NCBI GenBank assembly: GCA_963767275.1
Contig: CAVYDL010000005.1
Location: 401,533 to 465,532, forward strand
From: an uncultured delta proteobacterium
GTDB lineage: Bacteria; Desulfobacterota; Binatia; UBA9968
DNA length: 64,000 bases
Reading direction: 5' to 3'
The first letter of the stretch is position 1. Each line of letters opens with the position of its first letter. A model generated the notes under the pieces. The model saw only the letters and a list, made by a program, of their open reading frames with translations, searched no databases and was not told where the DNA came from. This document shows positions 8,966 to 52,195 of this stretch, piece after piece. The translations under genes were made by a program, and so were the position numbers.

Positions 8966-9052
8966 CCGTTCAAAGCGTACAGACCGTCCGAATCCGATTA
9001 ACGATTTGAACGGAGCGCAGCGATTGAACGGCTTGAACGATTTGAACGAATC
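8966..9052. repeat. GTTCAA/TTGAAC hexamer-cluster repeat
   Basis: One gttcaa at 8968-8973 followed by ttgaac-...-ttgaac-ggc-ttgaac-gat-ttgaac overlapping the 3' end of msrQ. Confidence 0.75.
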
Positions 9053-9674: not shown

Positions 9675-9751
9675 GGGAGATAAAAATATAAAATTAAATC
9701 GATAAAAATAGGACCAAGGAACGCCGGCGGATTGGCATTTTACACGTTTGC

Positions 9752-10714: not shown

Positions 10715-10905
10715 GGATTCTCCTCCTCGATTTAGGCGCACGGATATTCGCCAAACAGTTGTTTGATCGTCGTCTCGGTTTTGCCGTAGGCGCCTTCGCC
10801 ACTATGGCTGTAGCGGATTGAGCCCTTTTTGTCGACCAGCATGCAGGTACTGAGATTTGCATTACAACGATGCTCTGTCAGGCAAAGTTCCCGCGAGCTG
10901 TCGCG

Positions 10906-21317: not shown

Positions 21318-22034
21318 GTGACCATGGCTAACAATTGGGCAAATGCTCGAGTCGATAACAGCGACATGCCGATTTACGTGACTCTGCCGGCGAGCGATCG
21401 GACCGTGCCGGGTATCGTTGTCGTCCACGGACGCTCGGGTCTGGAAGATTTCATCAAGGATACGACGCGGATGTTTGCCCAGCTGGGTTATGCCGCGGTG
21501 GCGCCGAGTCTCTATCATCGCGATGGGCCGGATTGCAAAGACGACAACGAAGTGCGCAAGGCGCGCCTGCGCGATCCGTCGATCATTCGTGACATCGAAG
21601 GCGCGATCGGCTTTCTCAGAAATCACCCGCAGGTCGACGGTGGCAGGCTCGGCATCGTCGGCTTCTGCATGGGCGGGCGGTTAGTTTATTTGATGTCGGC
21701 GGCGAGCAAGGATTTGAAAGCCGGCGTGATGTTCTACGGCAGCAGCACCATGGAACCTTACGGTGAAGCCGGACCGACCCCGTTCGACCGCACGCGCGAC
21801 ATCAATTGTCCGATCCAAGGCCATTTCGGCGCCGACGATCAAAATCCCTCGCCGGAAGACATGCGCAAGCTCGACGCCGAGCTGAGCAAGTTCGGCAAGC
21901 CCCACGAATTTCACAGCTACGCCGGCGCGGCGCACGCGTTCGTCAATTCAGGCTCGGGAAATTATCGGCCCCATGCTGCGGCGCTATCCTGGCCCAAGGC
22001 GATGGAGTTTTTTGCCCGGCATTTGGTGGGGTAG
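21318..22034 (+). CDS. dienelactone hydrolase family protein
   Basis: Alpha/beta hydrolase with nucleophile motif GFCMGG. Confidence 0.7.
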   Translation: MTMANNWANARVDNSDMPIYVTLPASDRTVPGIVVVHGRSGLEDFIKDTTRMFAQLGYAAVAPSLYHRDGPDCKDDNEVRKARLRDPSIIRDIEGAIGFLRNHPQVDGGRLGIVGFCMGGRLVYLMSAASKDLKAGVMFYGSSTMEPYGEAGPTPFDRTRDINCPIQGHFGADDQNPSPEDMRKLDAELSKFGKPHEFHSYAGAAHAFVNSGSGNYRPHAAALSWPKAMEFFARHLVG

Positions 22035-22044
22035 CGGAGAGACG

Positions 22045-22080
22045 GCGTTCAAAACGTTCACGCCGTTCAAATCGTTGTTG
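22045..22080. repeat. GTTCAA hexamer-cluster repeat
   Basis: gttcaa-aac-gttcac-gcc-gttcaa-atc-gtt, followed by TTGCGAATTGCGAAC / ATTAATTGCGAAAAC motifs. Confidence 0.7.
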
Positions 22081-22490
22081 CGAATTGCGAACATAATCGC
22101 GATTAATTGCGAAAACTTTTGACGAGAATATTCTTAATTGTGCGCGACGCCGTTGAAACTAAAGAGTTGGACGCCTGTTTTCGACCTATGCTTTGATCTG
22201 TTCCTGACCCCACCGAAGAGCTGCTTGTTTGGTCTCTCCTCGGCTGTTGTGGCCTTCTAATTCGCCCATATCACACAGAGTTCTCTCGGGATTTGTAGTA
22301 TCGGACCTATCCAAAACGTTCGCCTTCCAGAGCCATTCTGCCGCGCTATGATGATGTCGATTGTGTAATCTCTGTATGCCTTCTTCATGTGGCTGCTACG
22401 TATCATCCGCTCCCACGTAATTAAAACCTAAGCGTACGGTTGCTTTCTCTCTGTGATGTGCGGTAAAAAAAGCTCCTTTGAGGGAGCGTT

Positions 22491-22715
22491 ATGCAACAAT
22501 TTTACAAAGGTCATACGATTAAAACCTCAGCCCAGCATTTACGCGACACGCAACAATGGCAACCCGTGCTTCAAATAATAATTTGGAATTACAACCAGAA
22601 CTTATTCAAACCTTTCAGCGCAACCGAATGTTTTTCAACACGGGAGCAAGCTGAAAGTGAAGGCCTAATAATCGCTAAAAAATGGATCGATGACGGCAAG
22701 CCCGGCGTCTCCTAA
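22491..22715 (+). CDS. hypothetical small protein (YKGHTI...AKKWIDDG)
   Basis: 74 aa; lies in the low-GC island. Confidence 0.4.
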   Translation: MQQFYKGHTIKTSAQHLRDTQQWQPVLQIIIWNYNQNLFKPFSATECFSTREQAESEGLIIAKKWIDDGKPGVS

Positions 22716-22999
22716 TCCGCTCTCGCCACGAGATCATCCGGCGGCCTCTCCGGCGTCAATTCTCCCGCCTTGAGTTATCTATGGCACGTGCTGTAAACGG
22801 TGCATGCCATACGCTATTCGGTTTACTCTTTTCCTACTTGCCGCGCTCTCTGTTACCGGGGTGCTCGGGTATCGTAGCGGTTTCGCCGGGTCTGGGCGGT
22901 CGTGCTCGTAATTTTGGTCATGATCCCGCTTATCATCGAATTCGGCGCGAGGTGTTGAAGCGGGACAGGCTATAGACTTCAACAAGCGCCGGCGGCAGG

Positions 23000-23290
23000 C
23001 TACTGTTTCATATTGTTAGTCACAAAATCGTTCCATTCGCTAGTCGCCTGACTCAGGACGCGTTGGTGATTTTTGATGGCTTCTTCCTGCTGACGGATAA
23101 ATCCCTCGATACATGATCTATACTTATTCACAGCGTCGTTAAATTTGTCTGCGTCTGGTTGGGTTTTAATCTCAGACGCCTTACCTGGACCATGACATGC
23201 GTGAGATGGGGCAGAAGCGTCAGCGTAGACGAGCGGAGTGGCAAGCATCAAAGATGCAAAAACCGACATATTGAAAAGGTTTACGATCAT
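23000..23290 (-). CDS. secreted hypothetical protein
   Basis: Signal peptide MSVFASLMLATPLVYA. Confidence 0.45.
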   Translation of the reverse strand: MIVNLFNMSVFASLMLATPLVYADASAPSHACHGPGKASEIKTQPDADKFNDAVNKYRSCIEGFIRQQEEAIKNHQRVLSQATSEWNDFVTNNMKQ

Positions 23291-23403
23291 GGCTCCTCCA
23301 GGAGATATGACTTTATCGCATGATATTCTGCTGCCTACTTGTCAACGGGACAACTCCGCGTTGCTTGGCAATACCATGCAAGTGGAAAGGAGCAGTGTGA
23401 GAT

Positions 23404-24381
23404 TTAAGGACGAAGCTTCCTGCGGAAGTTTTCGTAGAGATCATCGAATATCGCAGTGGCACGCGCAAGCCGCGCGTCGTCATCTCTATGTGCCATAGCG
23501 ATTCCGTCGATCAGTCGGGCTATGCCTATAGTTTCTTCCCGTTCAAACTTCGAGTCTTTCAGGTCGATGTCGTGGACAATTTCGGCGATCCTAACGAGGC
23601 CAGGATCACGAATCCCCGTTCGCATCATTAATACTTCCATTGAACAGCAGTCGTTCTCATGTGTGAACTCCGCCTCAAACATATCGAATCGGATTTCATC
23701 GTGTAGCGGCGTGTATCCTTTGGCGGGAACGAACTTGATGCGAGCTTCAGGATCGATGAAGCGCCGGACTACCCAGGCGGTAGCCATTCGATCGACATGG
23801 ATACCCGTTCGGGTTACCCAAGTCTTACCTCGTAAATCATTAATGTTTGTTTTGCCCTCGGATGTCGGGCCAGCTTTATTGTCGCGCAAGCGCGCCTCGA
23901 TGCCGGAGAGCAGCCCAGTTGCCGCCTCACGGCCGGGCGCGCCAAAGAAATCGATGGCAACCGCTTCATCCAGGTGGCGCTTTAGTCGCGCGAGGTCGAG
24001 TTCAAGCTGCGGCCGATTCTTTTTACCGAGCTTCCCTTGGGGACTGACAGTCTTGGCTATCCGGCGCGCACCCTCGGCGATCTGGTCGTAATCGGCCGTG
24101 CGAGATACTTGGAACAGTGCTTCGACTTCATCATCGTTAATCCCATCAACCAACCGCGCCTCACACAGCGTGCCGTCTCCGCCACCTTCGACGATCTCGC
24201 GCAATACCCATTGGAAGTCTTCTTGCGACTGATCGCTTTTAGGGAGGACGTATACGGAATTTTTGATAGCTACCGCGCCGAGCCGTTGCAGGCGGCGCCA
24301 AATTTTGACGCGTAGGTAACTCGGCTTTGGCGGGATCTGGTGAATCAATAATAACCAGCGGATGTCGTCGGATTCTTTCAT
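23404..24381 (-). CDS. chrB: chromate resistance protein ChrB
   Basis: N-terminal WLLLIHQIPPKPSYLRVKIWRRLQRLGAV...VYVLP; divergent from chrA. Confidence 0.8.
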   Translation of the reverse strand: MKESDDIRWLLLIHQIPPKPSYLRVKIWRRLQRLGAVAIKNSVYVLPKSDQSQEDFQWVLREIVEGGGDGTLCEARLVDGINDDEVEALFQVSRTADYDQIAEGARRIAKTVSPQGKLGKKNRPQLELDLARLKRHLDEAVAIDFFGAPGREAATGLLSGIEARLRDNKAGPTSEGKTNINDLRGKTWVTRTGIHVDRMATAWVVRRFIDPEARIKFVPAKGYTPLHDEIRFDMFEAEFTHENDCCSMEVLMMRTGIRDPGLVRIAEIVHDIDLKDSKFEREETIGIARLIDGIAMAHRDDDARLARATAIFDDLYENFRRKLRP

Positions 24382-24492
24382 TGATTTTCTTGACAGGAGA
24401 AACAGTTGTTATATACGTGATACATTCGTCCTATGCACCCATCGCTAGTTTATACTGTCTCGACCTTTAACTGAAACAGGGAATGTTCTGCG

Positions 24493-25731
24493 ATGGAACC
24501 TTTAGGCCGGCAAGCCCAAGTGGCAGGCAGCGCGGCTTTTATAGCGCCCGATCCGCGAATCCGCTTGTGGTCGCTCATCGGCTACTTCCTCAAACTAGGC
24601 ACTATTGGTTTTGGCGGACCAGTGGCATTGGTCGGTTTCATGTACCGTGACCTAGTCGAGCGTCGCGGTTGGATCACCGAGGATACCTACAAGCTTTCCC
24701 TCGCGCTGGCGCAGATAATGCCCGGGCCGCTGGCTGCACAGACGGCGATTGCGATCGGATATTTCGAGGGAGGCATTCTCGGCGCCACGCTGGTTGGTCT
24801 CGCGTTCATTATCCCGTCGTTCCTGATGGTCGTCGGGATTTCGCTTGCCTACGTCGCCTACGGCGGTCTTTGGTGGATGCAGGCGCTTTTCTATGCGATC
24901 GGCGCCACCGTGATTGCGATCATCGCCATTGCGGCCTACAAGCTCGCGCGCAGCACCAATAAACGCGAGCCGTTGCTTTGGGCCATTTTCGCCGTTCTGA
25001 CGGTTGTTACGGTATGGGCGCAGGCCGAGCTGGCGGAGTTCTTTATTGTTGCCGGTCTTGTCATGCTGCTCTCCCATGCGTGGCCTGGTTGGCGTGTTGG
25101 TTCGCTCATGACGTTGGGCGCGGCAACTCTGGCGGCTACGATTTGGCTGCTTGAGGCCTGGCTGCGTCAAGCCGGCACCACGGCCGGTTCCCAAGATTTA
25201 CTTGTGCAGATACTCTTATTCTTCACTAAAGCCGGCGCTTTTGTATTTGGCAGCGGGCTGGCAATCATTCCATTTTTGCAACAGGGTGTCGTACAGCAGT
25301 TCGGCTGGCTGAACCAGCACCAATTCCTCGACGCCGTCGCGGTCGCGATGATCACCCCCGGGCCAGTCGTCATCACCGTCGCTTTCATTGGATTTCTGGT
25401 AGCCGGCTTCGCAGGCGCGGTGATGGCCTCGATCGGTATTTTTCTGCCGGTATATGTCTTCACGATCGTGCCAGCTCCGTGGTTCAAACGACATCGCGAT
25501 AATCCGCAGCTCAAGGCCTTCGTCGATGGCGCCACGGCCGCTGCAACGGGAGCGATTACCGGCGCAGTCATTGTTCTCGCAATGCGCGCGATCACCGACT
25601 GGACAACGGCGACCATCGCACTTGTCAGTTTTGCTGTGCTCTGGCGCTACAAGATTTCCGAGCCGATTATCGTAACGATCTCAGGCGTGATCGGTTTGAT
25701 TCTTTGGCCACTGCTGCGCGGCGGGTCATAG
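24493..25731 (+). CDS. chrA: chromate ion transporter ChrA (CHR family)
   Basis: Two CHR half-domains with GTIGFGGPVA and AFVFGSGLAIIPFLQ; about 12 TM. Confidence 0.85.
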   Translation: MEPLGRQAQVAGSAAFIAPDPRIRLWSLIGYFLKLGTIGFGGPVALVGFMYRDLVERRGWITEDTYKLSLALAQIMPGPLAAQTAIAIGYFEGGILGATLVGLAFIIPSFLMVVGISLAYVAYGGLWWMQALFYAIGATVIAIIAIAAYKLARSTNKREPLLWAIFAVLTVVTVWAQAELAEFFIVAGLVMLLSHAWPGWRVGSLMTLGAATLAATIWLLEAWLRQAGTTAGSQDLLVQILLFFTKAGAFVFGSGLAIIPFLQQGVVQQFGWLNQHQFLDAVAVAMITPGPVVITVAFIGFLVAGFAGAVMASIGIFLPVYVFTIVPAPWFKRHRDNPQLKAFVDGATAAATGAITGAVIVLAMRAITDWTTATIALVSFAVLWRYKISEPIIVTISGVIGLILWPLLRGGS

Positions 25732-25740
25732 GCAGGAAGC

Positions 25741-26868
25741 ATGTCTCACGGAAAGAGAAACTCTATGGCACACGATGTCTGCGAACGCATTGCAGTTGTC
25801 TACCCTGGTGATTATGCGGAAAGAACGAAGGCAACAGCCGAAAATAACCGGTTCATAGACTTGTTCGGAGCCTTTGCCGCCCAAGGGATACATGCGGTAC
25901 CGGCGGTTTACCGTGATGATTTTAGCGCGGAAGTTCACGCTCAACTGATGCGCGTAGACGCCGTTCTCGTCTGGGTCAATCCTATTCAGGACGGGCGCAA
26001 TCGGTCTGTTCTCGATGCCATGCTTCGCGAGGTGGCCACTGCAGGAATTTTTGTCAGCGCGCATCCCGACATCATCCTGAAGCTGGGCACGAAGGAAATT
26101 CTATACCGAACGCGCAATATGGGGTGGGGGAGTGAGACTTATCTCTATAACAGCATGGAACAAGTGCGTCAGGAATTGCCCGCTCGCTTGGCAATCGGAA
26201 AAGCCCGCGTACTCAAACAATACCGCGGTAACGGCGGATCTGGCGTTTGGAAAGTGCAATTGCCGATGGGCGACTTTACGAGCGCTGAACAAGGTAGTGT
26301 CGGGCCTTTGCAGGCTGAAACGATCGTTCGCGTCCGCCATGCACAACGCGGCTGCAGTGAAGAAGAGATCATGTTAGGCGAATTCTTTGCACGATGTGAG
26401 GAATATTTTCTCGCGGACGGCCGGATGATTGACCAGGCGTATCAAGAACGGCTCCCCGACGGCATGATTCGCTGTTATCTCGTGCAGGAAAAGGTGGTCG
26501 GATTTGGCCACCAGGCTATCAACGCATTATTCCCCGCGCCTTCCGGCGCAGCGCCGACAGACGCCCCCCAACCTGGACCCCGCTTATACCATCCGCCCAC
26601 CAAGCCGGAATTCCAGGCTCTGAAACAGAAGTTAGAGCATGAGTGGTTACCGGCGCTGCAGCAGCTACTTGAAATCAACACCGAGAGCCTTCCCATTCTT
26701 TGGGATTGCGATTTTCTCCTCGGGCCGAAGGACGAATCCGGCGAAGACAGGTATGTGCTTTGCGAAATCAACGTCAGCAGTGTTGCGCCGTATCCTGAAT
26801 CTGCGGTGCACTACATCGTTGATGCGACGGTGGCTCGGGTACAATCGACGAGACAGAGACGCGTTTGA
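25741..26868 (+). CDS. ATP-grasp domain protein (RimK-like ligase fold), function unknown
   Basis: Motif VLKQYRGNGGSGVWKV and C-terminal LCEINVSSV resemble ATP-grasp signatures; 10 nt downstream of chrA. Confidence 0.45.
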   Translation: MSHGKRNSMAHDVCERIAVVYPGDYAERTKATAENNRFIDLFGAFAAQGIHAVPAVYRDDFSAEVHAQLMRVDAVLVWVNPIQDGRNRSVLDAMLREVATAGIFVSAHPDIILKLGTKEILYRTRNMGWGSETYLYNSMEQVRQELPARLAIGKARVLKQYRGNGGSGVWKVQLPMGDFTSAEQGSVGPLQAETIVRVRHAQRGCSEEEIMLGEFFARCEEYFLADGRMIDQAYQERLPDGMIRCYLVQEKVVGFGHQAINALFPAPSGAAPTDAPQPGPRLYHPPTKPEFQALKQKLEHEWLPALQQLLEINTESLPILWDCDFLLGPKDESGEDRYVLCEINVSSVAPYPESAVHYIVDATVARVQSTRQRRV

Positions 26869-27521
26869 ATGTCTAAAACCTCCGGGCAGGATATCGCTTC
26901 AAACGCGGCCTTCTCTTGGGCGCATTGATCGCCGTGTATCCGAGAAGATCAAAAGGATGGTGATTACTTGGTTGAAACGGTTTGCTAATTAACCAGACGC
27001 GAGCGCCGTCACTTTGGGCTCGGCGCCTTAAGGGTTTCATTGCTGCAATTTCGTCATCGCGCGCCTTGGCCTGTTGACGCGGTTGCGCAACACCTTTGTC
27101 TGTTCGTCGGCTATGACCATGCGGCCTGTTGCACCGGGCGCCTCGGTCTTGTACCGGACCGCAATATTCATGTCTCCGCTCGCCATGGATTGCACAGTTA
27201 TCGACTCAACCGATGGCTAAGTCTTTCCACTGTTAATCGGTGCTTCACTTCCGGCCCTCCCCGGTTTTTGTAGCTTTTAATTCGCGTTGATCGCGCAAAT
27301 CAATCTTACCCGGCTATAAGGTTTTACGAAGTCTCCGGGCGCGCATGCCCAATTTTCACCGGCATTTTAGGAGCCGCACTCACTATTCTGTGGCACACAT
27401 GCTGCGTTGACTTTCTTTAGTCAGCGCCCGGAGTTAGCTCGTCGTAAGTTCATCAACTTTTGGTTTTGGAGTCGGCATTCGCCGTGTATTAGTTAACAGC
27501 GAAAATGGAGTTATTATCACG

Positions 27522-28019
27522 ATGCAAGCCTGGTATGTCATTTATACAAAAGCGCAGAAGGAAGAGCTCGCGCAATTCCATTTGAAATTGAAGAATCTCG
27601 AATCGGTTTTTCCCAGACTCTTGCTACCGCTATTTTCGCGTAAGCAAAAGCGAATTGTTCCGCTATTCCCCAACTATCTTTTTGTTCGGATTGATTTCGA
27701 GAAAGAGTATGACTTTGTGCGTTGGTCGCCCGGTGTGAAGTGTTTCGTTAGTTTCAATGACAGGCCGCATCCTTTGGAAGACGGTGTGGTCGAATATCTT
27801 TTGGATCGGGCGGATAAGAACGGGATCATTGCCGCGCGGCCTAACCTAAAAAAAGGCCAAGAGGTACGAATTTGCGGTGGTCCTCTGGCTGGGCTAGATG
27901 GAATTATTCAAAATCCTCCTGATGCAAAAGGGCGAGTGACAGTGCTATTGAGCCTTTTTAACCGCAACGTCGAAGCAGGGGCGCGGTTAGAGCACATCGA
28001 GAGTAGTTGGCTGAAATAA
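27522..28019 (+). CDS. NusG-paralog transcription antiterminator (UpxY/LoaP/RfaH-like)
   Basis: NGN domain WYVIYTKAQKEELA...YLFV; KOW motif GQEVRICGGPLAGLDGII. Confidence 0.7.
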   Translation: MQAWYVIYTKAQKEELAQFHLKLKNLESVFPRLLLPLFSRKQKRIVPLFPNYLFVRIDFEKEYDFVRWSPGVKCFVSFNDRPHPLEDGVVEYLLDRADKNGIIAARPNLKKGQEVRICGGPLAGLDGIIQNPPDAKGRVTVLLSLFNRNVEAGARLEHIESSWLK

Positions 28020-28176
28020 GCTTTCTAAGTAGGTTTGTCGTTACCGGCGGCGTTTCTTTCGGGCTCGGCACCGTTTTATAAAGTTAAATAGACTAAATAT
28101 GCGACAAAAAACTGACAGGATAATGCCAAAGATACCCGCTACGAATCCTCAAAAATTCATCGGCGGACGCTAGCGT

Positions 28177-28365
28177 CTACGGATTGAGCGCAATGTCGTC
28201 TACATATCCGCACTCTGTGCATCGCGCTCGGAGACAGTCCTTCCAGACCGAAGGATCAAGCGGTGTAGTATTGGGTATTAACTTCATCACACCATTGCCG
28301 CACTTCGGACACGTACTATTTGGTTTGACCATATCGTCACACCTTTCTTGTTCGTGAATTTGCAT
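28177..28365 (-). CDS. zinc-ribbon small protein
   Basis: CPKCG...CTECG, two CxxC pairs. Confidence 0.45.
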   Translation of the reverse strand: MQIHEQERCDDMVKPNSTCPKCGNGVMKLIPNTTPLDPSVWKDCLRARCTECGYVDDIALNP

Positions 28366-28604
28366 GCGAAACGATGGCGTAATCAGGCATGCACGAGCCC
28401 TAGTCCCATTTACCGACTATGTCAAAGCCAATATCGGATGGGGTGTAGGCTCGACGCCCCCATTTGTTTCTGTACAGAAATGGGTGGGAGAGGTTGAAGG
28501 CGAACCGCCCAATTTATGATTTCTAAGTTGTGGGACGAGATTCGGATCGTTGCGTGGACGCGATGCTGCTTGGGGACGAAGCAAAAGCAGGAGGGCTATT
28601 CTGA

Positions 28605-28859
28605 CTAAAGGTCACCTAGCAAGCCGGCGTCTCTGAGCCCTTGACGGATCCGTTTTATTGCCTCGGGGCAATGCTCTCTGGCGATGGATAATAATTGGAA
28701 TGCATGATCTTCGTTGCAATGAATAGCGTTGGTAGGCCAACCGGTAGATTGAAGTTGGGATCCGGAGTTGAGCAGCATTATTCCGAGTGCGGAGCTGCGC
28801 TCAATGTGCCTGAGAAAACAGTCTACATCGGCTGAGGAAAGCTCAATGATAATCTCCAT
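28605..28859 (-). CDS. hypothetical protein
   Basis: 84 aa ORF in the island. Confidence 0.3.
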   Translation of the reverse strand: MEIIIELSSADVDCFLRHIERSSALGIMLLNSGSQLQSTGWPTNAIHCNEDHAFQLLSIAREHCPEAIKRIRQGLRDAGLLGDL

Positions 28860-29263
28860 CGTGCTGCCTCCGCGGCGCCCAAGATCATAGGGGCCACTCC
28901 GATATTAAGTATTAGTAGTTTCTGTGAGTTATCGCTGTCAGATAACAGACAACGTTCGTTTTTACCGATGTCAGGTCCGTGATGGATGGCTGCTCGCCGA
29001 ACGGAAACATCGTGACGCCGCGATCTTCGAGAGCCCAGGGGGGCGTGACGTTTTTCGGCTTGGCGGCCCGCCTTTTGATATTTCTCCGCTAGGGAAACAA
29101 CTGGCGCCAAAATTGGAATCTTTTGAGTTTATCTTTGTGCGGTAATAGTCCCATTAGGGTGAAACTATTTCATACTGTCCGGCCCATGGGACGAACGGCA
29201 ATCCTAGACAGGTTAATTCCCCATCACATTTTCGCGCATGGCGGATGCGCTCGCTCGAACCGT

Positions 29264-30322
29264 TCAGCGCGGCGGCAGCGGCCCGGCCCCGTTGATCTTT
29301 TTGAACAGATCGATGATTTCCGGGTCGCGCGGCAAATCTTTCACCAGCTTTTCCATCTCTTCCGGCAATATCGGCGTCGGTTCTTCGCCGACCATTTTTT
29401 TGTATTCCTTGTGAAACTCCGGGTCGTTGAAAGTTTTGCTAAAAGCTTGGCGCAGAACTTTTAACTGCTCGACGGAAGTTCCCGGCGGCAGAATATAGGG
29501 CGAGCCGACTTGCCTGAAGGCGCGAACCATTGACGTCAATCGCCGTTCGCGCGCCGTCTTGGCAAATTCATCGATCTCGGGCAGACGGTCGAAGCCGGAT
29601 TGTTTTAGTCCGCGCGGAACCTCCATGATCGCGTGAATGTCGATCATGCCTTTGGCGAGCATATCGGCGTTGCGCCGCACCAGAGTATCGGGATTGTTTA
29701 CGCGGCCGTCGATTTCTCCTCTGGCTAGAGCGATGTCTTGCTCATTTCCTGAATAGCCAACCAGCATTTTCGGCTCTTTGATGCCTATCAGCCAGGCAAA
29801 CAGGCGGCCGACGAAATAATTGGAATGGCCCACGGCCTGGGCGCCGATGCGTATGCCGGGCGCTTGGCGCAGCGCTTCCAAGGTGCCGAAGCCGGCGTCG
29901 CGGCGGGTGATAAAAACCCAGTGGTAGGTGCTGTGGGCGGAGCCCAGATAAATCAGTTTGTCGAGATCGTAAAGGACGCCGGCTTCTTTCAACGCGGCAT
30001 TGGCGACCAGGCCGCCGCCGATGCGGCCGATGGTGAGCCCGTCAGGTTTGGTGTTATGAAAGATATGGTTGGCGGCCTTGGTGCCGCCGCCTCCGGGCAT
30101 ATATTGGTATGCGATGGTCGGCTCGCCGGGAATATGCTTTCTCAAGACCGGGATCGTCGCCCGGACCATCGTATCGGAGGTGTCCCCGGGATCGGAGGAC
30201 TGAAGGATCGTCAGAGTCTTCCCCTGATAGAATGGCGCCTGCGACAGTGCGGGGAACGGCCACCACAGGCTTAGCAACGCTACCAGCATCAATCGTCGGA
30301 AGTCATAATTCGTTGGGAGCAT
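29264..30322 (-). CDS. Bug family (TctC-like) tripartite tricarboxylate transporter substrate-binding protein
   Basis: Signal peptide; Bug-family length; motifs PGGGGT, GYSGNEQD. Confidence 0.8.
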   Translation of the reverse strand: MLPTNYDFRRLMLVALLSLWWPFPALSQAPFYQGKTLTILQSSDPGDTSDTMVRATIPVLRKHIPGEPTIAYQYMPGGGGTKAANHIFHNTKPDGLTIGRIGGGLVANAALKEAGVLYDLDKLIYLGSAHSTYHWVFITRRDAGFGTLEALRQAPGIRIGAQAVGHSNYFVGRLFAWLIGIKEPKMLVGYSGNEQDIALARGEIDGRVNNPDTLVRRNADMLAKGMIDIHAIMEVPRGLKQSGFDRLPEIDEFAKTARERRLTSMVRAFRQVGSPYILPPGTSVEQLKVLRQAFSKTFNDPEFHKEYKKMVGEEPTPILPEEMEKLVKDLPRDPEIIDLFKKINGAGPLPPR

Positions 30323-31219: not shown

Positions 31220-32782
31220 TCATTTGTTGTCGACCGATTTGCTCCCTGGAGTCGGTGCGGAGGTATTGTCTTGAGTCATATCGCCTAAGTATTGAGGTAA
31301 CTCAATACCGGCCATGGCGGCGACGTCGTGCAGCGGTGGCAAACTTTTGATCAGCCCGGCGAGGAAATTGGCTGTCGAACTGCCATCCTTTCCATTGCTG
31401 GTGCCGGAATCCCAAACCGTAACCTTATCGATTTTGATACCTTTAATCGCCTCCACCTGCAGGTGGACGATTTGTTCGATCTTTTCCGTCATTAACAGAG
31501 TTGCCGCGGCTTTCGCGTCGCCGTTGCAGCCACGAACGAGTTCCAGGTAGCCGGCTGCTTTGCTGTCGAGAACCTTGCGGATGCCTTCGGCTTCGGCGTC
31601 GTACTTTAGCAAGATGGCGTCAGCCACGCCCTTGGCTTCGCGCCGGGTCTTCTCGGCTTCGGCTTCGGCGGCAATCTCGATCTTGCGTTTCTCGATCTCC
31701 TGGGGCACTACCTCGGCCGCGGTCAGTCGTTCTTGCTCGGCCTTGGCCTGGGCCTTTTGAATCTCCGCTTCGGCTTCGCGCTTTGCCACCTCGCCACGCT
31801 GTAATGATTCGGCCTGCTTGACGGCTAGTTCGGCGTTGTAGGCGGCAATATTGGCCTTAGCCATGTTCTCACCCGCGATGGCTTGAGCTTCCTGTCCCTG
31901 GATAAAAACCCGCCGGTCGGCTTCCGCCTGTTTTTTGCCCTTTTCCGCTTCGGCGACATTTACCGCTACGCGAATTTCCTTTTCCCGATTGGCGGTGGAT
32001 TCGCCGATGGTTGCCGTTGTCTCTTGCTGCTGGACGAAAATTCGCTGGTCGGCTTCAGCGCTCTTTTTCCCTTTCTCCGATTCGGCGACGTTTTCGGCGA
32101 CACGGATGGTTTTCTCGCGGGTCGCTTCGGCCTCACCGATGGCGCCCTTCTTGTCCTGTTCGGCGACGTCGACCTTGGCCTGGTTGATCGCTTCCGACGC
32201 CGCTTTTTTGCCGATTGAATCGATGTAGCCCGACTCGTCGGTGATGTCCGTAATGTTGACGTTGATCAAGTAGAGACCGATTTTGTTTAGCTCCGGCGCG
32301 ACGTTTTTGCGGATCGACTCGAGGAACGATTCGCGATCCTGGTTGATCTGCTCGATGGTGAGCGAAGCGACGGTCAGGCGGAGCTGGCCAAAGATAATCT
32401 CGCGGGCCATCTCTTCGATCTGGTTTTGGGTCTGATTGAGCAAGCGCTCGGCGGCGGCGGTCATGATCGTCGGATCGGTGCTGATGCCGACGGTAAAAGT
32501 GGAGGGAACATTGATCCGAATATTCTGCAGTGATAACGCCTTCTGGAGTGGAATGGGAATGGTCATCGGCGTTAGGCTCATGTAAGCGTAATCTTGGATC
32601 AGCGGCCAAATCAACGTGCCGCCGCCGTGGATACAATTTGCCGATTGTCCTTGTCCGACCTTGCCGTAAACTACGAGAATCTTATCCGAGGGACACCGTT
32701 TGTAGCGGCTGGCGAGGAAACTGATGGTCGATATGACCAAGATGAGGAGAGCGCCGATGGGGAGAATCCAGAAGTCAAACAT
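31220..32782 (-). CDS. flotillin-like SPFH/band-7 protein (YqiK/FloT-like)
   Basis: N-terminal TM; SPFH domain; long Ala/Glu/Lys-rich coiled-coil with internal EA repeats. Confidence 0.8.
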   Translation of the reverse strand: MFDFWILPIGALLILVISTISFLASRYKRCPSDKILVVYGKVGQGQSANCIHGGGTLIWPLIQDYAYMSLTPMTIPIPLQKALSLQNIRINVPSTFTVGISTDPTIMTAAAERLLNQTQNQIEEMAREIIFGQLRLTVASLTIEQINQDRESFLESIRKNVAPELNKIGLYLINVNITDITDESGYIDSIGKKAASEAINQAKVDVAEQDKKGAIGEAEATREKTIRVAENVAESEKGKKSAEADQRIFVQQQETTATIGESTANREKEIRVAVNVAEAEKGKKQAEADRRVFIQGQEAQAIAGENMAKANIAAYNAELAVKQAESLQRGEVAKREAEAEIQKAQAKAEQERLTAAEVVPQEIEKRKIEIAAEAEAEKTRREAKGVADAILLKYDAEAEGIRKVLDSKAAGYLELVRGCNGDAKAAATLLMTEKIEQIVHLQVEAIKGIKIDKVTVWDSGTSNGKDGSSTANFLAGLIKSLPPLHDVAAMAGIELPQYLGDMTQDNTSAPTPGSKSVDNK

Positions 32783-44744: not shown

Positions 44745-45209
44745 ATGATTCCCCGCGACAGCGCCCTGGGACGAGCCCTCGTCAGTCAGCTCGATAAGGT
44801 TGTCACCATCCTGCTTCTCCCGGCGTTCTTCGCATTGACGGGCATGGGGACGCGAATCGACTTGCTATATGAGCCGTGGCAGTGGCTGATTTGTGCCGTC
44901 ATCATTGTGACAGCCGTGGGCGGGAAGTTTGGTGGCACACTGGTTGCCGCACGCCTGACCGGGTTGCGCTGGCGCGACGCGGCGATTCTCGGCACGATGA
45001 TGAACACCCGGGGGCTGATGGAATTGATCGTTCTAAACGTCGGGCTGGACTTGCAGGTCATAACGCCCACGCTCTTTGCAATGATGGTATTGATGGCCCT
45101 GGTAACCGCTATGATGACAGCGCCGGTGGTGCGGTTGCTAGATCCGCGGCCCGCCCTCGAAGAGGAGCCGGAGACGATAATGGAACATGGGCTACGAAAC
45201 CTGCGATAG
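44745..45209 (+). pseudogene. C-terminal fragment of a cation:proton antiporter (CPA/KefB/NhaP-like)
   Basis: Frame continues upstream (GIQAIFGAFLLGAMIPRD) to an in-frame TGA; no N-terminal part in any frame. Confidence 0.65.
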
Positions 45210-45248: not shown

Positions 45249-46034
45249 TTACCGCCGGGAGTCGTTAGCCGGCTCGCCTTCATCGATCGGGTAGATGTGC
45301 GGCGTAAAGTAGCGACCCACGGGCTGCTGCCCGATGAAGTTTTCGAAGTACTCGTGCCAGCGCATCGCAGCGACCCAGATCGCCTCCGGACACGAGGCGC
45401 GTGACTCGAGGCCGGGCGTTAGATCAAACTTGGCTGCTGCGCAAGCGATCTCGAGCATGCAGGCGCTCGGCAGCCCAATTCCATCAGTGAGCGGATTGGG
45501 AGTTCGCGCGGCCCCCCAGGCGAAAGCCAGCCAGCGCAGTATGTGCTCAAGGGCGTCGAGCGTCCCGCGCGAGCGCTTGAAGGTTTCAACTTTTTCCAGG
45601 ATCTGTGTCTGCGCTATGGGCAGAGCGATCAGCGCAATGTTGGGCCAGTGGTCCGGGTCGGCGAAGTCGCGCATGGGCCGGTCGACGACGCCGTTGGTGC
45701 GGGTGGCAAACACGCCCTGCGCCGGCTGCAGAAGCGGCACGTGCAGTGCCCGGGCGCGCGCCACTCTTTCGCCGCGCAGGCGGGCGAGAACGGCTTCCGA
45801 CCAGTACGAGGGCAGCATGTCACTACGCAAATGCGACTGCGCAACGCGCAGGCGGAAGGACAGTGTATCGTTCCCGCCGAGCAGCACGACGTAGGTCCAA
45901 CCGTCGGACCCGCCCGTGCCCATATCGGCGACAGCGCGCGTTCCCCATTGCAAGTTGTCTTCGTTCTTGAGCCGCGTCAGCGGCTTGAGCAACTGGTTCT
46001 TGGTTTTGCTCGTAGATTGAAGTTGACGCAGCAT
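45249..46034 (-). CDS. hypothetical protein (third gene of lipase-PhoD operon)
   Basis: Start MLRQLQ at 46034 with GGAGA RBS, 19 nt after the PhoD-like stop. Confidence 0.5.
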   Translation of the reverse strand: MLRQLQSTSKTKNQLLKPLTRLKNEDNLQWGTRAVADMGTGGSDGWTYVVLLGGNDTLSFRLRVAQSHLRSDMLPSYWSEAVLARLRGERVARARALHVPLLQPAQGVFATRTNGVVDRPMRDFADPDHWPNIALIALPIAQTQILEKVETFKRSRGTLDALEHILRWLAFAWGAARTPNPLTDGIGLPSACMLEIACAAAKFDLTPGLESRASCPEAIWVAAMRWHEYFENFIGQQPVGRYFTPHIYPIDEGEPANDSRR

Positions 46035-46053
46035 TGGTTGGGTCTCCGTGGGG

Positions 46054-47526
46054 TTAATAGGGTAACAGCGGGAACGGTCCGGCGGTCTCCGGTTGCGCAA
46101 CCTCCGGGTCGGCGTGAATCGCGTGATAACTCACCTGCATTTCGAGCCCGCGCCCGGCGCGACTGAACTGCACAAGGGCCACCTGATCGCCGCGACGGTG
46201 GAACACTTTGATCGGAGTAAACTGCCGCCCGCGACCAAAGCGACTCGGCGGGTTCGGCGGTTCGGGGTGTCGCGGCCAAGTCTCAGCGCGGCCAAAAATG
46301 CCGCGCAGGCTGTTCCCGACTAGCGCTAATTGATCCGTGCCGGGCGTGTCGATCAGGCGCGATGGCGAACAGATCACCTCGTACAGCATTGCGCGGCCGC
46401 TGGGCATGTGCACGGCCTCGGCGATGCGGCCCCAATGCACGTCACCGGTGAGAAAGATCACCGGCACGCCCGCGGTCGCCAGGCGCTCAAGCGCGCCCTC
46501 CACTCGATCGAACTCCTCGTAGTTGGCAAGCTCCGCGTCCTTCCAGCGAGCCGCGCTATCCTCGGGCAGATCCACAAACAGCGCCTGCCCTGCCGCAAGC
46601 AGGCCGATCACAGGCTTGCCTGCCGCGAGCGCCGCGGCCAGATCGGTTTCCCAAGCGAGGAGCGCCGCTTTGGCTTCGGACGCCATCAGTCCAGCCGCGG
46701 CAGCGAAGTCGCCGCCCCTGCGGCAGCGAGTGTCCAGTATCAGCATGCGCAGCGGGTCGATGTCGATACGCCAACTCGACGCAGCGCTGCCGGGAGGACC
46801 TCCTTGCTGGTAGTCCTCGTACAGCGACTGGGCAGCCGCACACCAGCGGGTGCGACCGTCCTCGGCCCACGTGCCCGGTAGCTGTGCCTGCTTGAACGGG
46901 TAATTGTTCCAGAACTCGTGGTCGTCGGGGATGCACAGCGCAGGTGCTCGGGTGAGCAGCGCATGCAGCCCTGCGATCCCAAGTGTTTCCGACAGCCAGT
47001 TGCGCCGGTACTTGTCGCCGAGAAACTGCGACAGCGCGGGTTCGCTCTCGGGCAGGTCTTCGAAGAGCGGCAGGTCCAGGTAAACCTGATCGCCGGCCAG
47101 CAGCGTCATGTGCGGGCGAATTGGCAATTGCGCGACAATGTTGCCGAGCATGCCGCCGCTGTCTTCGGGCTGAAAGTAGCACGACGCGAGCAACAGATTG
47201 AAAGTTCCATCAAGCTTGGCGGGCACAGCGGATGGCAGCGAATGGACGATTCGCTCGATACGGTCGCCGCCTGCGCGCACAGCGACAAGGTGGGGTCGAT
47301 CGGGACCCCGCGCGGCAAGGCGGAACACGCCCTGGTGATTGAGTGGCAAGCCGCGTGGGCCTGTCTGACGGTCTCGAATCGGGTTGAGCTGCGGCGTACC
47401 GATGGGCAGCGCCGCTTGGCCGCCGATCTCGAAGGTCGGCATAGGCGGCTGCTCGCTACCGAAGATACCGATCCAGAGCTGGAGCTCATCCGCGGCGCCG
47501 ACCTGAGGCCATGCGGCGAGCATCAT
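46054..47526 (-). CDS. PhoD-like phosphatase / metallophosphoesterase
   Basis: Motifs LLAGDQVYLD and IPDDHEFWNNYP; start MMLAAWPQ overlaps the upstream stop (ATGA); track ORF has an Arg-rich spurious extension. Confidence 0.55.
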   Translation of the reverse strand: MMLAAWPQVGAADELQLWIGIFGSEQPPMPTFEIGGQAALPIGTPQLNPIRDRQTGPRGLPLNHQGVFRLAARGPDRPHLVAVRAGGDRIERIVHSLPSAVPAKLDGTFNLLLASCYFQPEDSGGMLGNIVAQLPIRPHMTLLAGDQVYLDLPLFEDLPESEPALSQFLGDKYRRNWLSETLGIAGLHALLTRAPALCIPDDHEFWNNYPFKQAQLPGTWAEDGRTRWCAAAQSLYEDYQQGGPPGSAASSWRIDIDPLRMLILDTRCRRGGDFAAAAGLMASEAKAALLAWETDLAAALAAGKPVIGLLAAGQALFVDLPEDSAARWKDAELANYEEFDRVEGALERLATAGVPVIFLTGDVHWGRIAEAVHMPSGRAMLYEVICSPSRLIDTPGTDQLALVGNSLRGIFGRAETWPRHPEPPNPPSRFGRGRQFTPIKVFHRRGDQVALVQFSRAGRGLEMQVSYHAIHADPEVAQPETAGPFPLLPY

Positions 47527-48380
47527 GGCCAGAAGGCTCGCACGTAGTTGACCGGCGCGTGGTCGGCGAGGTCGCGCGAGAGCACGGTGCCGAAGCGGAA
47601 CGCATGCTGCGCGAGGTAATCGATCCGGGCCTGAAGCCGGTCGGCATTGATGAATTCCGTCGCCGCGTCGGCGGCGACGCCGCCATTGCGATCGATGTAA
47701 GTCAGTCGGCCGGCATGCTCGAAGCCGGCCTGCGTCGGCGGAATCTCGGTAACCACATCGCAACAGTCTACGATGCGCGTCACTTCGAGCCCCAGTGTAG
47801 CCGTGATGCCGGCTGCAAAAGTCGCGTCCCCGACCCGAGGGGAGCCGATCGTGATCAGATGAGTAGCCTGGGCCGGCCGCGCCAGTAGTGTGGCGATGGC
47901 AGCGCCCAAGCTGTGGCCGCAGACCATCAATCCTTGGCGTCGCCGCGCGGGTCCATCGAGCCAGGCATTTACTTCGGGCCACAGGCTCAGCGCCGTTCCG
48001 CGAAAGCCTGCATGCACCTGACCGGCACCGTGGTCCAAAGGGCTGAACACGAAGCCGAGGTCAGTGGCGAGATCGCCAAGTCGGTCGGGTTGAGTGCCGC
48101 GGAAGACGAGCAAGCCGAAGCCGTCGGTTCGAAGTGCGCCATAGCCCTGGCCGTCAGTGGCCGGATCGTTAAAGAGAGCGGGCGGGTCGAAGCCGGCCAA
48201 CGCCAACGCCGCGGCCAAGCGGTCACGCTCGGCCTGTGACTCTTCCACACGCAAGTAGGCGAGCCTTGCAGCTTCAGCCGCGAGCGCTTCGGCACTCGCC
48301 GGCGGGCCATCTCGGAACACGGTGTCGCGGCGTTCCGGCTGTAACAGTGCGATCCGGCTTGGATCGTAGGCGATAGGCAT
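47523..48380 (-). CDS. class 3 lipase family alpha/beta hydrolase
   Basis: Nucleophile elbow VCGHSLGAAIATL; no signal peptide. Confidence 0.65.
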   Translation of the reverse strand: MPIAYDPSRIALLQPERRDTVFRDGPPASAEALAAEAARLAYLRVEESQAERDRLAAALALAGFDPPALFNDPATDGQGYGALRTDGFGLLVFRGTQPDRLGDLATDLGFVFSPLDHGAGQVHAGFRGTALSLWPEVNAWLDGPARRRQGLMVCGHSLGAAIATLLARPAQATHLITIGSPRVGDATFAAGITATLGLEVTRIVDCCDVVTEIPPTQAGFEHAGRLTYIDRNGGVAADAATEFINADRLQARIDYLAQHAFRFGTVLSRDLADHAPVNYVRAFWP

Positions 48381-48503
48381 TGCAAATTGTTTTACTCGAA
48401 AACGCGAATTCGGTAAATATGTCGGAGCCGTAGTTTGGCACCATTGTCCTAGCAGACAACGATTTGCATTCGTGGTAAATGAGCCGGTGGAGGAACAGTC
48501 GAA

Positions 48504-49514
48504 ATGAATAAACCGCAGTTGATGGCGGCCTGGGCGTTTATCTTAGGATGCGCATGCATATGCCCTTGGACTTCATTCGCCGCCGAGTGGAAGGACAAAG
48601 CCGAGGCGGAGGGAAGGTTGGTTTTCTACACCACCGCCAACACGGCGGATACGAAAGCCCTCACCGACAGCTTCAAGAAACTCTATCCGAAGGTCGATGT
48701 GCAGTTCGACCGCACCACCGACTCCCAGATGATGGAGAAGATACTGATCGAAGCGCGGGCCGGAAGATCGCAGTGGGATGTGGTTTCGACGACGGGGTTT
48801 TATGGATACCTGCTAAAAAAACGCGGACTCCTGGCCGCCTACGATTCCCCGGAACGAAAATACTTCCGCGTTGGTTTCAAAGATCCCCAGGGATTTTGGA
48901 CTTCGAACTATACCACCTACGGAGTTTTTGGTTTCAATACCAAACTCGTGTCAAAGGCAAACGTTCCGCGATCCCATGAAGATCTGCTCAAGCCCGCCTG
49001 GAAAGGCCAGGTCGGCATCGAAAGCCGGGCCTATGAATGGTTTACCGCGACGATCAGCGGCATGGGACGAGAAAAAGGACTGAGCTTCATGCGTGCGCTC
49101 GCGGCTCAACAGCCCAGCCTGCGCAGCGGCAGAACCCTATTGGCCCAGTTGGTTGCCGCCGGCGAGTTCAACGGCGCACTGACTTCCTATATGCACAACT
49201 TCGATACGTTGAAGGCCGGCGGCGCGCCGGTGGATTGGGTCCCGCTGGCACCGTCCTTCGCTAACCTTCATCCGGTGGGACTTTCCGCGAAAGCGCCCCA
49301 TCCAAACGCGGGCAGGCTGTTTATCGATTTCATGCTTTCCCAGAGGGGACAGGAAGTCGTGCGTGCTCTTAAACGCATTCCGGATCGCCGCGATACGCCG
49401 CCGGACCCGCCGACTTTGCTGCAAGGAGTGACGCCGGCGTTTACCGCACCCGAGATGTATGACGACTTCGATCGCTACATCAAGCTCTATCAAGAGATAT
49501 TCGGCGTCAAGTGA
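48504..49514 (+). CDS. ABC-type Fe3+/solute-binding family 1 SBP
   Basis: Signal peptide; paralog of 37768 and 56364. Confidence 0.7.
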   Translation: MNKPQLMAAWAFILGCACICPWTSFAAEWKDKAEAEGRLVFYTTANTADTKALTDSFKKLYPKVDVQFDRTTDSQMMEKILIEARAGRSQWDVVSTTGFYGYLLKKRGLLAAYDSPERKYFRVGFKDPQGFWTSNYTTYGVFGFNTKLVSKANVPRSHEDLLKPAWKGQVGIESRAYEWFTATISGMGREKGLSFMRALAAQQPSLRSGRTLLAQLVAAGEFNGALTSYMHNFDTLKAGGAPVDWVPLAPSFANLHPVGLSAKAPHPNAGRLFIDFMLSQRGQEVVRALKRIPDRRDTPPDPPTLLQGVTPAFTAPEMYDDFDRYIKLYQEIFGVK

Positions 49515-51295: not shown

Positions 51296-52195
51296 TTGTC
51301 GGTGGCGCAATCGACTGACGATAAATTTCGCGTGACGCTGCTCGGCACCGGTGCGCCGCCGCCGCGCTTGGATCGATTTGGGCCTAGCACATTGGTCGAA
51401 GTCGGCCAGCAGAAATTTATTTTCGACGCCGGCCGCGGTGCGATGCAGCGGCTGCATCAATTGGCCATTCCGTTCAGCGATATCACCGGCCTTTTTCTCA
51501 CCCATCATCACTCGGATCATGTCGTCGGCTTTCCCGATCTCTGGCTCACCGGATGGATCGGCCGGCCCTGGGGACAGCGTGCGCAGCCGTTGCCGGTGTA
51601 CGGTCCAGTTGGAACGCGGCAGATGATGGAGCATCTGCCGCTGGCTTTCCACGTCGATATCCGCGTGCGCAGCCGCGTTTATCCGCCGGACGGCGTCAAA
51701 TTGGACGCCTGCGAGATTAGCCAAGGCGTGGTGTTCGATCATGCTGGGGTCAGGGTCAGTGCGTTCGAGGTCGACCATGGCGGCGAGGAATTGCCGGCCT
51801 ATGGTTACCGCATTGATTATCAAGGGCGCTCGGCGGTGCTTTCCGGCGATACCACCTTCAATGAGAATTTGATCGATCATGCCCAGGGTGCCGATTTACT
51901 GGTGCATGAGGTCACGGCGCTCGCCGGCAGCGCGGCCGAAGATCCGCAACAATTGAAAAGAATCGGCGCCAACCACACCACGCCGGAGCAGGCCGGTGAG
52001 GTGTTCGCGCGGGTGCGGCCGAAGCTGGCGGTGTTTAATCACCTACTGCTGTTCGGCAGCGCGCAGCCCAGGGACTTGATACCGGCGACGCGAAAAAATT
52101 ATGACGGGCCCTTGATCGTCGGTGAGGACTTGACGCAAATAGAAATCGGCAGCGAGATTCGCACCCTACCGTTCCAGCCCAAGCTGGGTCAGTGA
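51296..52195 (+). CDS. MBL-fold metallo-hydrolase
   Basis: HxHxDH motif LTHHHSDHVVGF. Confidence 0.7.
   Translation: MSVAQSTDDKFRVTLLGTGAPPPRLDRFGPSTLVEVGQQKFIFDAGRGAMQRLHQLAIPFSDITGLFLTHHHSDHVVGFPDLWLTGWIGRPWGQRAQPLPVYGPVGTRQMMEHLPLAFHVDIRVRSRVYPPDGVKLDACEISQGVVFDHAGVRVSAFEVDHGGEELPAYGYRIDYQGRSAVLSGDTTFNENLIDHAQGADLLVHEVTALAGSAAEDPQQLKRIGANHTTPEQAGEVFARVRPKLAVFNHLLLFGSAQPRDLIPATRKNYDGPLIVGEDLTQIEIGSEIRTLPFQPKLGQ

Follow-up and report, generated by a model that had tools for sequence, protein, structure and literature searches.

Secreted PhoD enzymes are classic members of the Pho regulon, and enzymes with the circularly permuted NlpC/P60 fold have only recently been shown to act on lipids, as toxins of type VI secretion systems (T6SS) and as lipoprotein N-acyltransferases; to our knowledge most bacterial members of this fold have no known role. 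Here we describe a locus in which genes related to these two groups stand side by side, in a 64,000-nucleotide stretch of DNA (the window) from an uncultured delta proteobacterium (Desulfobacterota, Binatia; GenBank assembly GCA_963767275.1, contig CAVYDL010000005.1, positions 401,533–465,532). Three consecutive minus-strand genes, spanning 45249-48380 on the open reading frame (ORF) map, encode a class-3 lipase, a PhoD-like metallophosphoesterase and a protein previously recorded as unknown, which we refer to as gene 3. The conserved core of this operon is a strictly paired, previously undescribed two-gene module of the PhoD-like gene and gene 3, and the formerly unknown gene 3, predicted to have a YiiX-like permuted NlpC/P60 fold, proves to be the most informative gene of the operon. 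The locus combines a sequence family not described before with an obligate pairing that is likewise new, both built from known enzyme superfamilies.

Among described proteins the closest to gene 3 are BcPPNE (PDB 3kw0) and YiiX (2if6), both of PF05708. BcPPNE has a GD motif (D25), S48-H49, E64, Y127 and C154, and YiiX was solved with a fatty acid in its hydrophobic S1 pocket (PMC3142127). Tox-Act1 and TseH have phospholipase activity (PMC12994826), the LRAT/PLAAT group contains acyltransferases, and the permuted NlpC/P60 enzymes that have been solved or assayed have hydrophobic pockets and take fatty-acyl linkages as targets (PMC3142127, PMC12994826). Gene 3 has no detectable sequence similarity to BcPPNE or YiiX, exceeds them by about 70 residues and has an additional helical segment (142-235), carries in the subclade of the window Glu or Gln at the His position and His at the acidic position, and unlike these enzymes is always paired with a PhoD-like gene. 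Although the T6SS effectors Tox-Act1 and TseH and the LRAT/PLAAT proteins are permuted NlpC/P60 enzymes that act on phospholipid acyl groups, gene 3 is structurally closer to YiiX, and in contrast to Tox-Act1 and TseH it has no secretion-system context, immunity gene or toxin-type fusion.

The other two proteins also depart from their characterized counterparts. Compared with Bacillus subtilis PhoD (2yeq; 15% identity over 389 aligned residues) and the plant purple acid phosphatases, the PhoD-like protein lacks both a twin-arginine translocation (Tat) signal and a Pho-regulon context, and the absence of the signal indicates that it is presumably cytoplasmic. In the PlcP-Agt system of SAR11, Sinorhizobium and Pseudomonas, a cytoplasm-facing metallophosphoesterase acts on phospholipid head groups, as we propose here, but PlcP, a small enzyme of PF00149, is induced by phosphate stress and has a glycosyltransferase gene next to its own, whereas the enzyme described here is of PhoD type, has an NlpC/P60-like partner, and has neither a linked glycosyltransferase nor a Pho box that we could find. 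The GHSLG elbow, Asp and His of the first gene are those of the fungal class-3 lipases (Rhizopus niveus 1lgy, Thermomyces lanuginosus 1dt3) and feruloyl esterase A; the fungal lipases are secreted, whereas gene 1 encodes a signal-less bacterial protein.

A strictly paired two-gene module with an optional lipase

A scan with the gene 3 profile of one genome per species (185,579 species) gave 124 confirmed loci, of which 80 were kept. Judged by their record titles these lie in Alpha-, Beta- and Gammaproteobacteria, Blastocatellia and Pyrinomonadaceae (Acidobacteriota), Kouleothrix (Chloroflexota), Bacteroidota, Verrucomicrobiota (Verrucomicrobiae), Nitrospirota (Nitrospira), Gemmatimonadota and others, at least eight phyla in total. 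The PhoD-like gene is directly upstream of gene 3 and on the same strand in all 79 loci that have upstream DNA, the two exceptions to the adjacency being loci cut by contig ends, and the gap between the two genes has a median of 20 nt (range -4 to 115, one aberrant case aside). Pairwise distances among the PhoD-like proteins and among the gene 3 proteins are correlated with r=0.96 (59 loci), and we therefore conclude that the two genes are inherited as one unit. A family that is invisible to Pfam, NCBIfam and PADLOC is thus tied gene-for-gene, in hundreds of genomes, to a predicted cytoplasmic PhoD-type phosphoesterase, and for both orphan families this strict pairing provides a concrete two-enzyme hypothesis that can be tested.

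The lipase is an optional add-on that evolves semi-independently of the pair. About a dozen loci have it, with ten same-strand adjacent copies, one divergent (L033) and one weak match 3 kb away (L047); all of these except L047 belong to one subclade, and lipase distances correlate loosely with those of the pair (r=0.48 to 0.61). The original prediction, which framed the operon as a lipase acting with a phosphodiesterase, is not supported in this form: the invariant unit is the PhoD-like gene with gene 3 and most loci lack the lipase. Where the lipase is present the arrangement is not a matter of chance, since the order lipase, PhoD-like gene, gene 3 is repeated in at least ten other genomes, with a 4-nt ATGA or GTGA overlap in eight of ten same-strand cases.

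Flanking genes vary with lineage, and no Pfam family occurs more than five times among 139 non-redundant immediate neighbours. In three loci, from metagenome-assembled genomes (MAGs) of Chromatiales (L058, 1395-7183), Bacteroidota (L066, 6514-10738) and Verrucomicrobiae (L067, 5052-10004, with the gene 3 match at 10001-10717), the pair ends a co-oriented and tightly spaced oxidoreductase run with the order ALO/FAD_binding_4 oxidase (not seen in L066), Gluconate_2-dh3 small subunit, GMC oxidoreductase, PhoD-like gene, gene 3. In another locus (L010) a GFO/IDH/MocA oxidoreductase gene is immediately upstream of the pair. On an 89-kb mobilizable plasmid of Roseibium sp. Sym1 (L093, NZ_CP114790.1, 2115-14688) the pair is flanked by genes for a 1,100-aa DEAD/DEAH helicase and a 623-aa hypothetical protein, and beside it is a type II cyclic oligonucleotide-based antiphage signalling system (CBASS) with nucleotidyltransferase, ThiF, JAB/MPN and SAVED components.

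Folds and active sites of the three proteins

Gene 3 has no match in Pfam, NCBIfam, PADLOC or PHROGs. Searches against Pfam including PF05708 (Peptidase_C92) gave nothing at E≤1 for the window protein and nothing at E≤10 for ten relatives, and a profile of the family found no relative among PDB sequences. An AlphaFold2 model built on a 33-sequence alignment is of moderate quality (predicted local distance difference test score, pLDDT, 73; predicted template modelling score, pTM, 0.76), with residues 158-187 unreliable. Its structural matches, with scores, are BcPPNE (3kw0, 11.4), Escherichia coli YiiX (2if6, 10.4), the T6SS effector TseH (6v98, 7.0), the MARTX RID acyltransferase domain (5xn7, 5.7) and PLAAT4 (7zot, 4.3), and Foldseek returned 3kw0 alone (probability 0.99). 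With BcPPNE or YiiX recovered by two methods, the model places gene 3 in a new family with a predicted circularly permuted NlpC/P60 (YaeF/YiiX-like) fold.

The order of the motifs in gene 3 also follows BcPPNE. GG-x-D56 is followed by S79 and residue 80, 24 residues past D56, which is the BcPPNE spacing; residue 98 closes the second strand of a modelled hairpin (80-87 / 90-98); and C215, in the motif SCPEAIW, is directly before the helix 216-225, the place of a catalytic Cys at a helix N-terminus. From motif order, spacing and the secondary structure of the model we infer that C215 corresponds to Cys154 of BcPPNE. It is retained in 61 of 63 sequences, the exceptions being two Cellvibrio copies in which E210 and R212 are missing as well, and two divergent relatives have TSPE, with Ser replacing Cys, an exchange that is expected of a nucleophile position. 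C192 and H164 were considered as family-wide catalytic residues and rejected, as they are Ala and Leu in the other subclade. In both Cellvibrio copies (C. fontiphilus, L049 and L052) C215 is Ala, E210 and R212 are Asn and E195 is Asn, and the PhoD-like partner is kept; these gene 3 copies are probably inactive.

When key positions are tabulated over the 63 sequences, two subclades are seen. Type A, about half of the family, includes Nitrosospira, Roseibium/Stappia/Hoeflea, Blastocatellia, Kouleothrix, Bacteroidota and Verrucomicrobia, and has S79-H80, E98 and C215 with L164 and A192. Type B includes the window, Burkholderiales, Methylobacillus, Pseudomonas and Janthinobacterium, and has E or Q (rarely H or T) at position 80 and H (in some Y or S) at position 98; H164 and C192 were gained here, and in a small group from Paraburkholderia the two positions are Q80 and S98. 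Conserved across both are R63, Q66, H68, R70, D72, S76, W78, N114, D160, E210, R212, E217 and H246. The Ser-His dipeptide that would supply the catalytic His is thus replaced in the window protein by S79-E80, with H98 on the adjoining strand. Because the exchange of His and Glu covaries across one hairpin, we suggest that in type B the catalytic base has been relocated to the neighbouring strand and not lost. The lipase occurs essentially only with type B.

Searched with a profile, 1.84 billion representatives yielded 394 relatives of gene 3, nearly all of them stand-alone proteins of 240-300 aa; domain fusions that could hint at function were sought among them, and the one extended relative (1158 aa) has no Pfam domain in its extension. 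Many Burkholderiales homologues have variable C-terminal tails rich in Lys, Arg, Pro and Ala, for example PKPKKARPKGPKKSKA and KPKAAKPAVKSAAKAAKAAPKKGR (alignment A1, columns ~270-351), which could bind anionic membranes or polymers; the window protein is without such a tail.

The PhoD-like protein has a marginal match to Pfam PhoD (PF09423; 29.8 bits against a cut-off of 27), and most of its homologues have the same assignment precomputed. Family-invariant residues are S115-C116, G145-D146-Q-x-Y149-x-D151, D201-D202-H203-E204-x-W-N207-N208, G313-Q314, T360-G-D362-V-H364, E383 and S387-P388. The metal-ligand motifs of PhoD (Cys, GDxxY, DDHE and GDxH) are therefore represented by C116, D146/Y149, D202/H203 and D362/H364, each invariant in 26-71 sequences, although the assignment of residues to particular metals is one that we presume to follow the PhoD structure. 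The DDHEFWNN and GDQVY motifs reported earlier are found within PDDHEFWNN and AGDQVYLD. The AlphaFold2 model is of high confidence, with its first beta-strand beginning at residue 2, and its fold, an N-terminal beta-sandwich and a calcineurin-like core, is that of 2yeq. Structural matches are to a purple acid phosphatase (6ofd, 25.8), B. subtilis PhoD (2yeq, 25.3), the glycerophosphodiesterase GpdQ (2dxl, 17.4) and acid sphingomyelinase (5jg8, 14.5). As a single sequence the protein found no PDB relative, and the family profile found only 9uya, a secreted PhoD-type alkaline phosphatase (E=0.0018), with the DDHE and GDVH stretches aligned. Tat export and Pho-regulon control are typical of characterized PhoD enzymes, and we found neither a twin-arginine motif in the protein nor a Pho box at the operon. 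Profile, motifs and fold agree with the original prediction in placing the second gene in the PhoD/purple acid phosphatase branch of the metallophosphoesterases, of which it appears to be a divergent, active and cytoplasmic member.

The first gene matches Pfam Lipase_3 (PF01764; E=5.8e-19, 68.8 bits, cut-off 22). S157 in the GHSLG motif, D208 and H274 are each at least 97% conserved among 120 homologues, and the catalytic triad is intact; the GHSLGAA elbow noted previously begins at residue 155. Among solved structures the protein is closest to the secreted class-3 lipases of fungi and to feruloyl esterase A (E=1.8e-11 to 1e-8); the best match is the Rhizopus niveus lipase 1lgy (E=1.8e-11), with which the elbow and the Asp region align. 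The lipase also accounts for the sole PHROGs match of the operon, to a generic esterase/lipase family. None of the three proteins has a hydrophobic N-terminus, and the maximal Kyte-Doolittle mean over 19 residues is below 1.6 in each; all are predicted to be without signal peptide or membrane segment. This bears out two earlier claims, that the first gene encodes a signal-less class-3 lipase and that neither it nor the PhoD-like protein, in which the fold itself starts at residue 2, has a Sec or Tat signal.

The lipase family is large (1,303 matches, mostly in Burkholderiales and Pseudomonas) and occurs in several genomic contexts, and we therefore regard the lipase as a movable accessory. In Polaromonas (L089) a homologue is divergent from a different PhoD-like gene of 328 aa, and in Pseudomonas sp. 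GM55 (L087) what follows another is a vestige of the N-terminal domain of the PhoD-like protein (residues 1-108, 43% identity), a sign that the cassette has decayed; the recurrence of lipase and PhoD-type neighbours supports a functional connection. One homologue (P0264, 71% identity) likewise overlaps the next gene, which is truncated where the contig ends, and another (L090) precedes a SIR2_2 gene. The Pseudomonas sp. GM55 locus (5001-6220 and 7972-10861) also adjoins a UvrD-helicase and OLD-TOPRIM/AAA_15 pair resembling Gabija. In two further loci (L091, 6001-8164; L092, 6001-8131) stand-alone homologues with 61-62% identity are convergent with a PHB_depo_C gene and near PHA_gran_rgn, and because this context is conserved in both, some members of the lipase family may relate to storage-granule metabolism.

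Predicted function of the module

We tentatively favour, with somewhat less than even confidence, the view that these genes form a cytoplasmic accessory module that degrades or remodels a phosphodiester compound carrying acyl groups, most probably a phospholipid. This would most likely be a glycerophospholipid or a close relative (a lyso-, N-acyl- or sphingo-phospholipid), and hydrolysis or remodelling would proceed stepwise in the cytoplasm or on the cytoplasmic face (inner leaflet) of the membrane. The head group could be attacked by the PhoD-like enzyme at its phosphodiester or phosphomonoester, the YiiX-like enzyme could use Cys215 to remove or transfer an acyl chain, and the lipase, where present, could hydrolyse the remaining glycerol esters. 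The data themselves establish the anatomy of the operon, the folds, the active-site motifs, the lack of export signals and the strict, co-inherited pairing; which class of substrate is used, in what order the steps run and whether the enzymes form a complex are inferred. A phospholipid-like substrate is favoured because of the known acyl specificity of the gene 3 fold, the lipase accessory, and the lipid-directed relatives of the phosphoesterase. The original prediction of intracellular lipid or phospholipid turnover gains support in its direction, since characterized members of the permuted NlpC/P60 fold act on lipid acyl groups.

Several observations weigh against a lipid-directed function. 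It is argued from family analogy, and the model of gene 3 is moderate only (pLDDT 73), falling below 50 at residues 158-187. The window protein lacks the canonical catalytic His (E80) and could therefore be catalytically altered or inactive, although it has H98 as well as H68 and H246, which are shared by the whole family. Most loci have no lipase gene, which is found in about a dozen, and its near relatives at 61-62% identity are stand-alone genes beside an intracellular polyhydroxybutyrate (PHB) depolymerase gene. Finally, in three other phyla the pair is co-oriented not with a lipase but with flavoprotein oxidoreductases of sugar/polyol type, which a polar, non-lipid substrate fits at least as well.

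This last point leads to the strongest alternative, a non-lipid catabolic module, which we consider possible although somewhat unlikely. The substrate of the PhoD-like enzyme would be a soluble phosphodiester or phosphomonoester (for example teichoic-acid-like polymer fragments, glycerophospho-compounds or phosphorylated N-acyl amino compounds), from which it would free a polyol, sugar or amino alcohol, with the YiiX-like protein as an amidase or esterase acting on the same molecule and the lipase as a mere carboxylesterase. The oxidoreductase runs of the three loci hint at a polyol- or sugar-containing substrate in that subclade, the GFO/IDH/MocA gene of L010 is in keeping with this, and all three proteins are soluble without a membrane anchor. 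BcPPNE was crystallized with bound lysine and is a proposed cleaver of fatty-acid–amino-acid amides (PMC3142127), but the characterized permuted NlpC/P60 enzymes prefer hydrophobic acyl substrates. The oxidoreductase neighbours, moreover, are confined to the other subclade and to few of its loci, over the whole set of loci no family of neighbours recurs, and in the subclade of the window the accessory gene is a lipase.

A more specific form of the phospholipid reading is that the pair is an obligate two-enzyme system, spread by horizontal gene transfer over at least eight phyla, that works on phospholipids of the cell's own membrane from inside the cytoplasm and has its catalytic His re-wired in type B; taken as a whole we find this doubtful. 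If true, it would be a bacterial counterpart of the eukaryotic logic in which PLAAT and a phosphodiesterase (with a class-3 diacylglycerol-lipase-like enzyme) produce or remove N-acyl and lyso lipids, and a metallophosphodiesterase would be working with a new branch of permuted NlpC/P60 acyl-hydrolases or transferases.

It was also proposed originally, as one example, that the operon remodels membrane lipids under phosphate limitation, by a route other than PlcP. Pho-regulated stripping of phosphate from phospholipids is suggested by the Pho-regulon membership of secreted PhoD enzymes, the enzyme set could in principle free phosphate in this way, and two of the 139 immediate neighbours are canonical PhoD genes. 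The upstream Pho-box search, at the operon and at 74 related loci, and the neighbour survey gave no support. With up to 3 mismatches to the E. coli consensus, which may miss sites of other phyla, there are 3 matches in the 64 kb (2.9 expected by chance) and none within 10 kb of the operon; upstream of the 74 loci the best match to the same enterobacterial consensus has on average 5.0 mismatches (controls 5.5), and at no locus is there a site with 2 or fewer. Neither pst, phoU or phoBR genes nor glycosyltransferase (Agt-like) partners recur among the 139 neighbours, and the module is rare and patchy, unlike a core stress response, so that we regard this proposal as improbable. The result matters for metagenomics, where such genes are annotated 'alkaline phosphatase D' and are countable as markers of extracellular organic-phosphorus mineralization; with no export signal and no Pho-regulon link seen, counting this subfamily in that way would be wrong.

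Still less probable, we believe, is a role in conflict, in which membrane-destroying effectors would serve abortive infection against phages or act as a set of antibacterial toxins. The patchy distribution suggestive of horizontal transfer, flanks that differ with each lineage, the position of the Roseibium plasmid pair, with a DEAD-box helicase on one side and a type II CBASS on the other, and some lipase homologues beside SIR2_2 or Gabija-like genes are all consistent with such a role, and the toxins TseH and Tox-Act1 have the fold of gene 3 (PMC12994826). The plasmid neighbours recur at no other locus, however, defence-type genes are a handful and near background among the 139 immediate and 143 more distant non-redundant neighbours, and no T6SS, PAAR, VgrG, immunity-like or sensor (NTPase, helicase) partner recurs among the 139. 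None of the three proteins matches PADLOC-DB v2, phages have no copy, and the gene was found on just 2 of 72,556 plasmids. That the three genes are merely neighbours without shared function is very improbable indeed, for although the lipase is dispensable in most loci and tracks the pair weakly, its 4-nt overlap is kept in eight of ten same-strand loci and the PhoD-like gene and gene 3 are invariably adjacent and co-inherited.

Operon features and genomic setting

The operon with its third gene of unknown type, its coordinates and the motifs were all as originally predicted, and lie on the minus strand (Table 1). The junction of the first two genes reads ccATGATGctc; the predicted overlap of the lipase stop and the PhoD start is real, as a 4-nt ATGA, and the literal ATGATGA is not there. 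The overlap is consistent with translational coupling of the two genes. Between the PhoD-like stop and the gene 3 ATG there are 19 nt. A 642-aa GTG-started ORF for the PhoD-like gene was rejected as an over-extension into the lipase gene, since homologues start at the MML/MxL position. The divergent intergenic region is presumed to contain the operon promoter; neither a sigma-70-like site nor a Pho box was detected in it, and an inverted repeat, TTGTC-N6-GACAA (48444-48459), has 5-bp arms too short to carry meaning.

Table 1. Features of the three-gene operon and its upstream border, in window coordinates
Feature	Position	Strand	Basis
Gene 1, class-3 (Lipase_3) alpha/beta-hydrolase, 285 aa, accessory first gene	47523-48380	minus	Pfam PF01764
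ATGA overlap of lipase stop (TGA) and PhoD-like start (ATG)	47523-47526	minus	read from sequence
Gene 2, PhoD-like metallophosphoesterase, 490 aa	46054-47526	minus	Pfam PhoD (PF09423), motifs, fold
GGAG ribosome-binding site, 9 nt upstream of gene 3 ATG	46044-46047	minus	read from sequence
Gene 3, 261 aa, predicted YiiX-like permuted NlpC/P60 fold, putative nucleophile C215	45249-46034	minus	structure model
Divergent intergenic region, 123 bp, between operon and solute-binding-protein gene	48381-48503		ORF map
Solute-binding-protein gene, divergent from operon	48504-49514	plus	ORF map

For those window proteins that have cluster-mates at 90% identity or above, the mates mostly carry the label Candidatus Binatia, and one MAG is labelled Candidatus Limnocylindria. 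Outside their own lineage the closest relatives of all three operon proteins are in Burkholderiales (Betaproteobacteria) and Pseudomonas, and cross-phylum transfer of the cassette is therefore likely, as judged from these sequence relationships. The G+C content of the cassette is 0.64-0.66 compared with 0.59 ± 0.024 in its neighbours, and at third codon positions 0.73-0.78 compared with 0.725 ± 0.05; as the excess sits in codon positions 1 and 2, composition was not counted as proof of foreign origin. No flanking direct or inverted repeats were found beyond short matches at chance level, and there is no tRNA gene in the window. Beside gene 3, a plus-strand ORF of 154 aa (44745-45209) matches only the C-terminal part of a Na+/H+ exchanger (PF00999) and ends, convergently, 40 nt from the gene 3 stop. 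It looks like the remnant of a truncated gene and would suggest a past rearrangement or insertion at the border of the cassette.

On both sides of the operon, between about 37768 and 60008, orphan genes for periplasmic solute-binding proteins (NMT1/NMT1_2, TctC and SBP_bac_1) form an unusually dense run. There are at least ten of them, mostly without adjacent permease or ATPase genes, and with small glyoxalase-fold genes interleaved. Within this run a plus-strand gene (51296-52195) encodes a metallo-beta-lactamase-fold protein with precomputed Pfam assignments to PF23023 (Anti-Pycsar Apyc1), Lactamase_B and Lactamase_B_2, which could be either an ordinary hydrolase of this fold or a cyclic-nucleotide phosphodiesterase. 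Further to the left, the G+C content of the window drops to 0.50-0.52 at 22001-30000, compared with 0.55-0.60 elsewhere, and this segment may be a foreign island. Two minus-strand genes, named from their cluster-mates, encode a flotillin homologue (31220-32782) and a Rieske-type (phthalate-dioxygenase-like) oxygenase (19841-21118).

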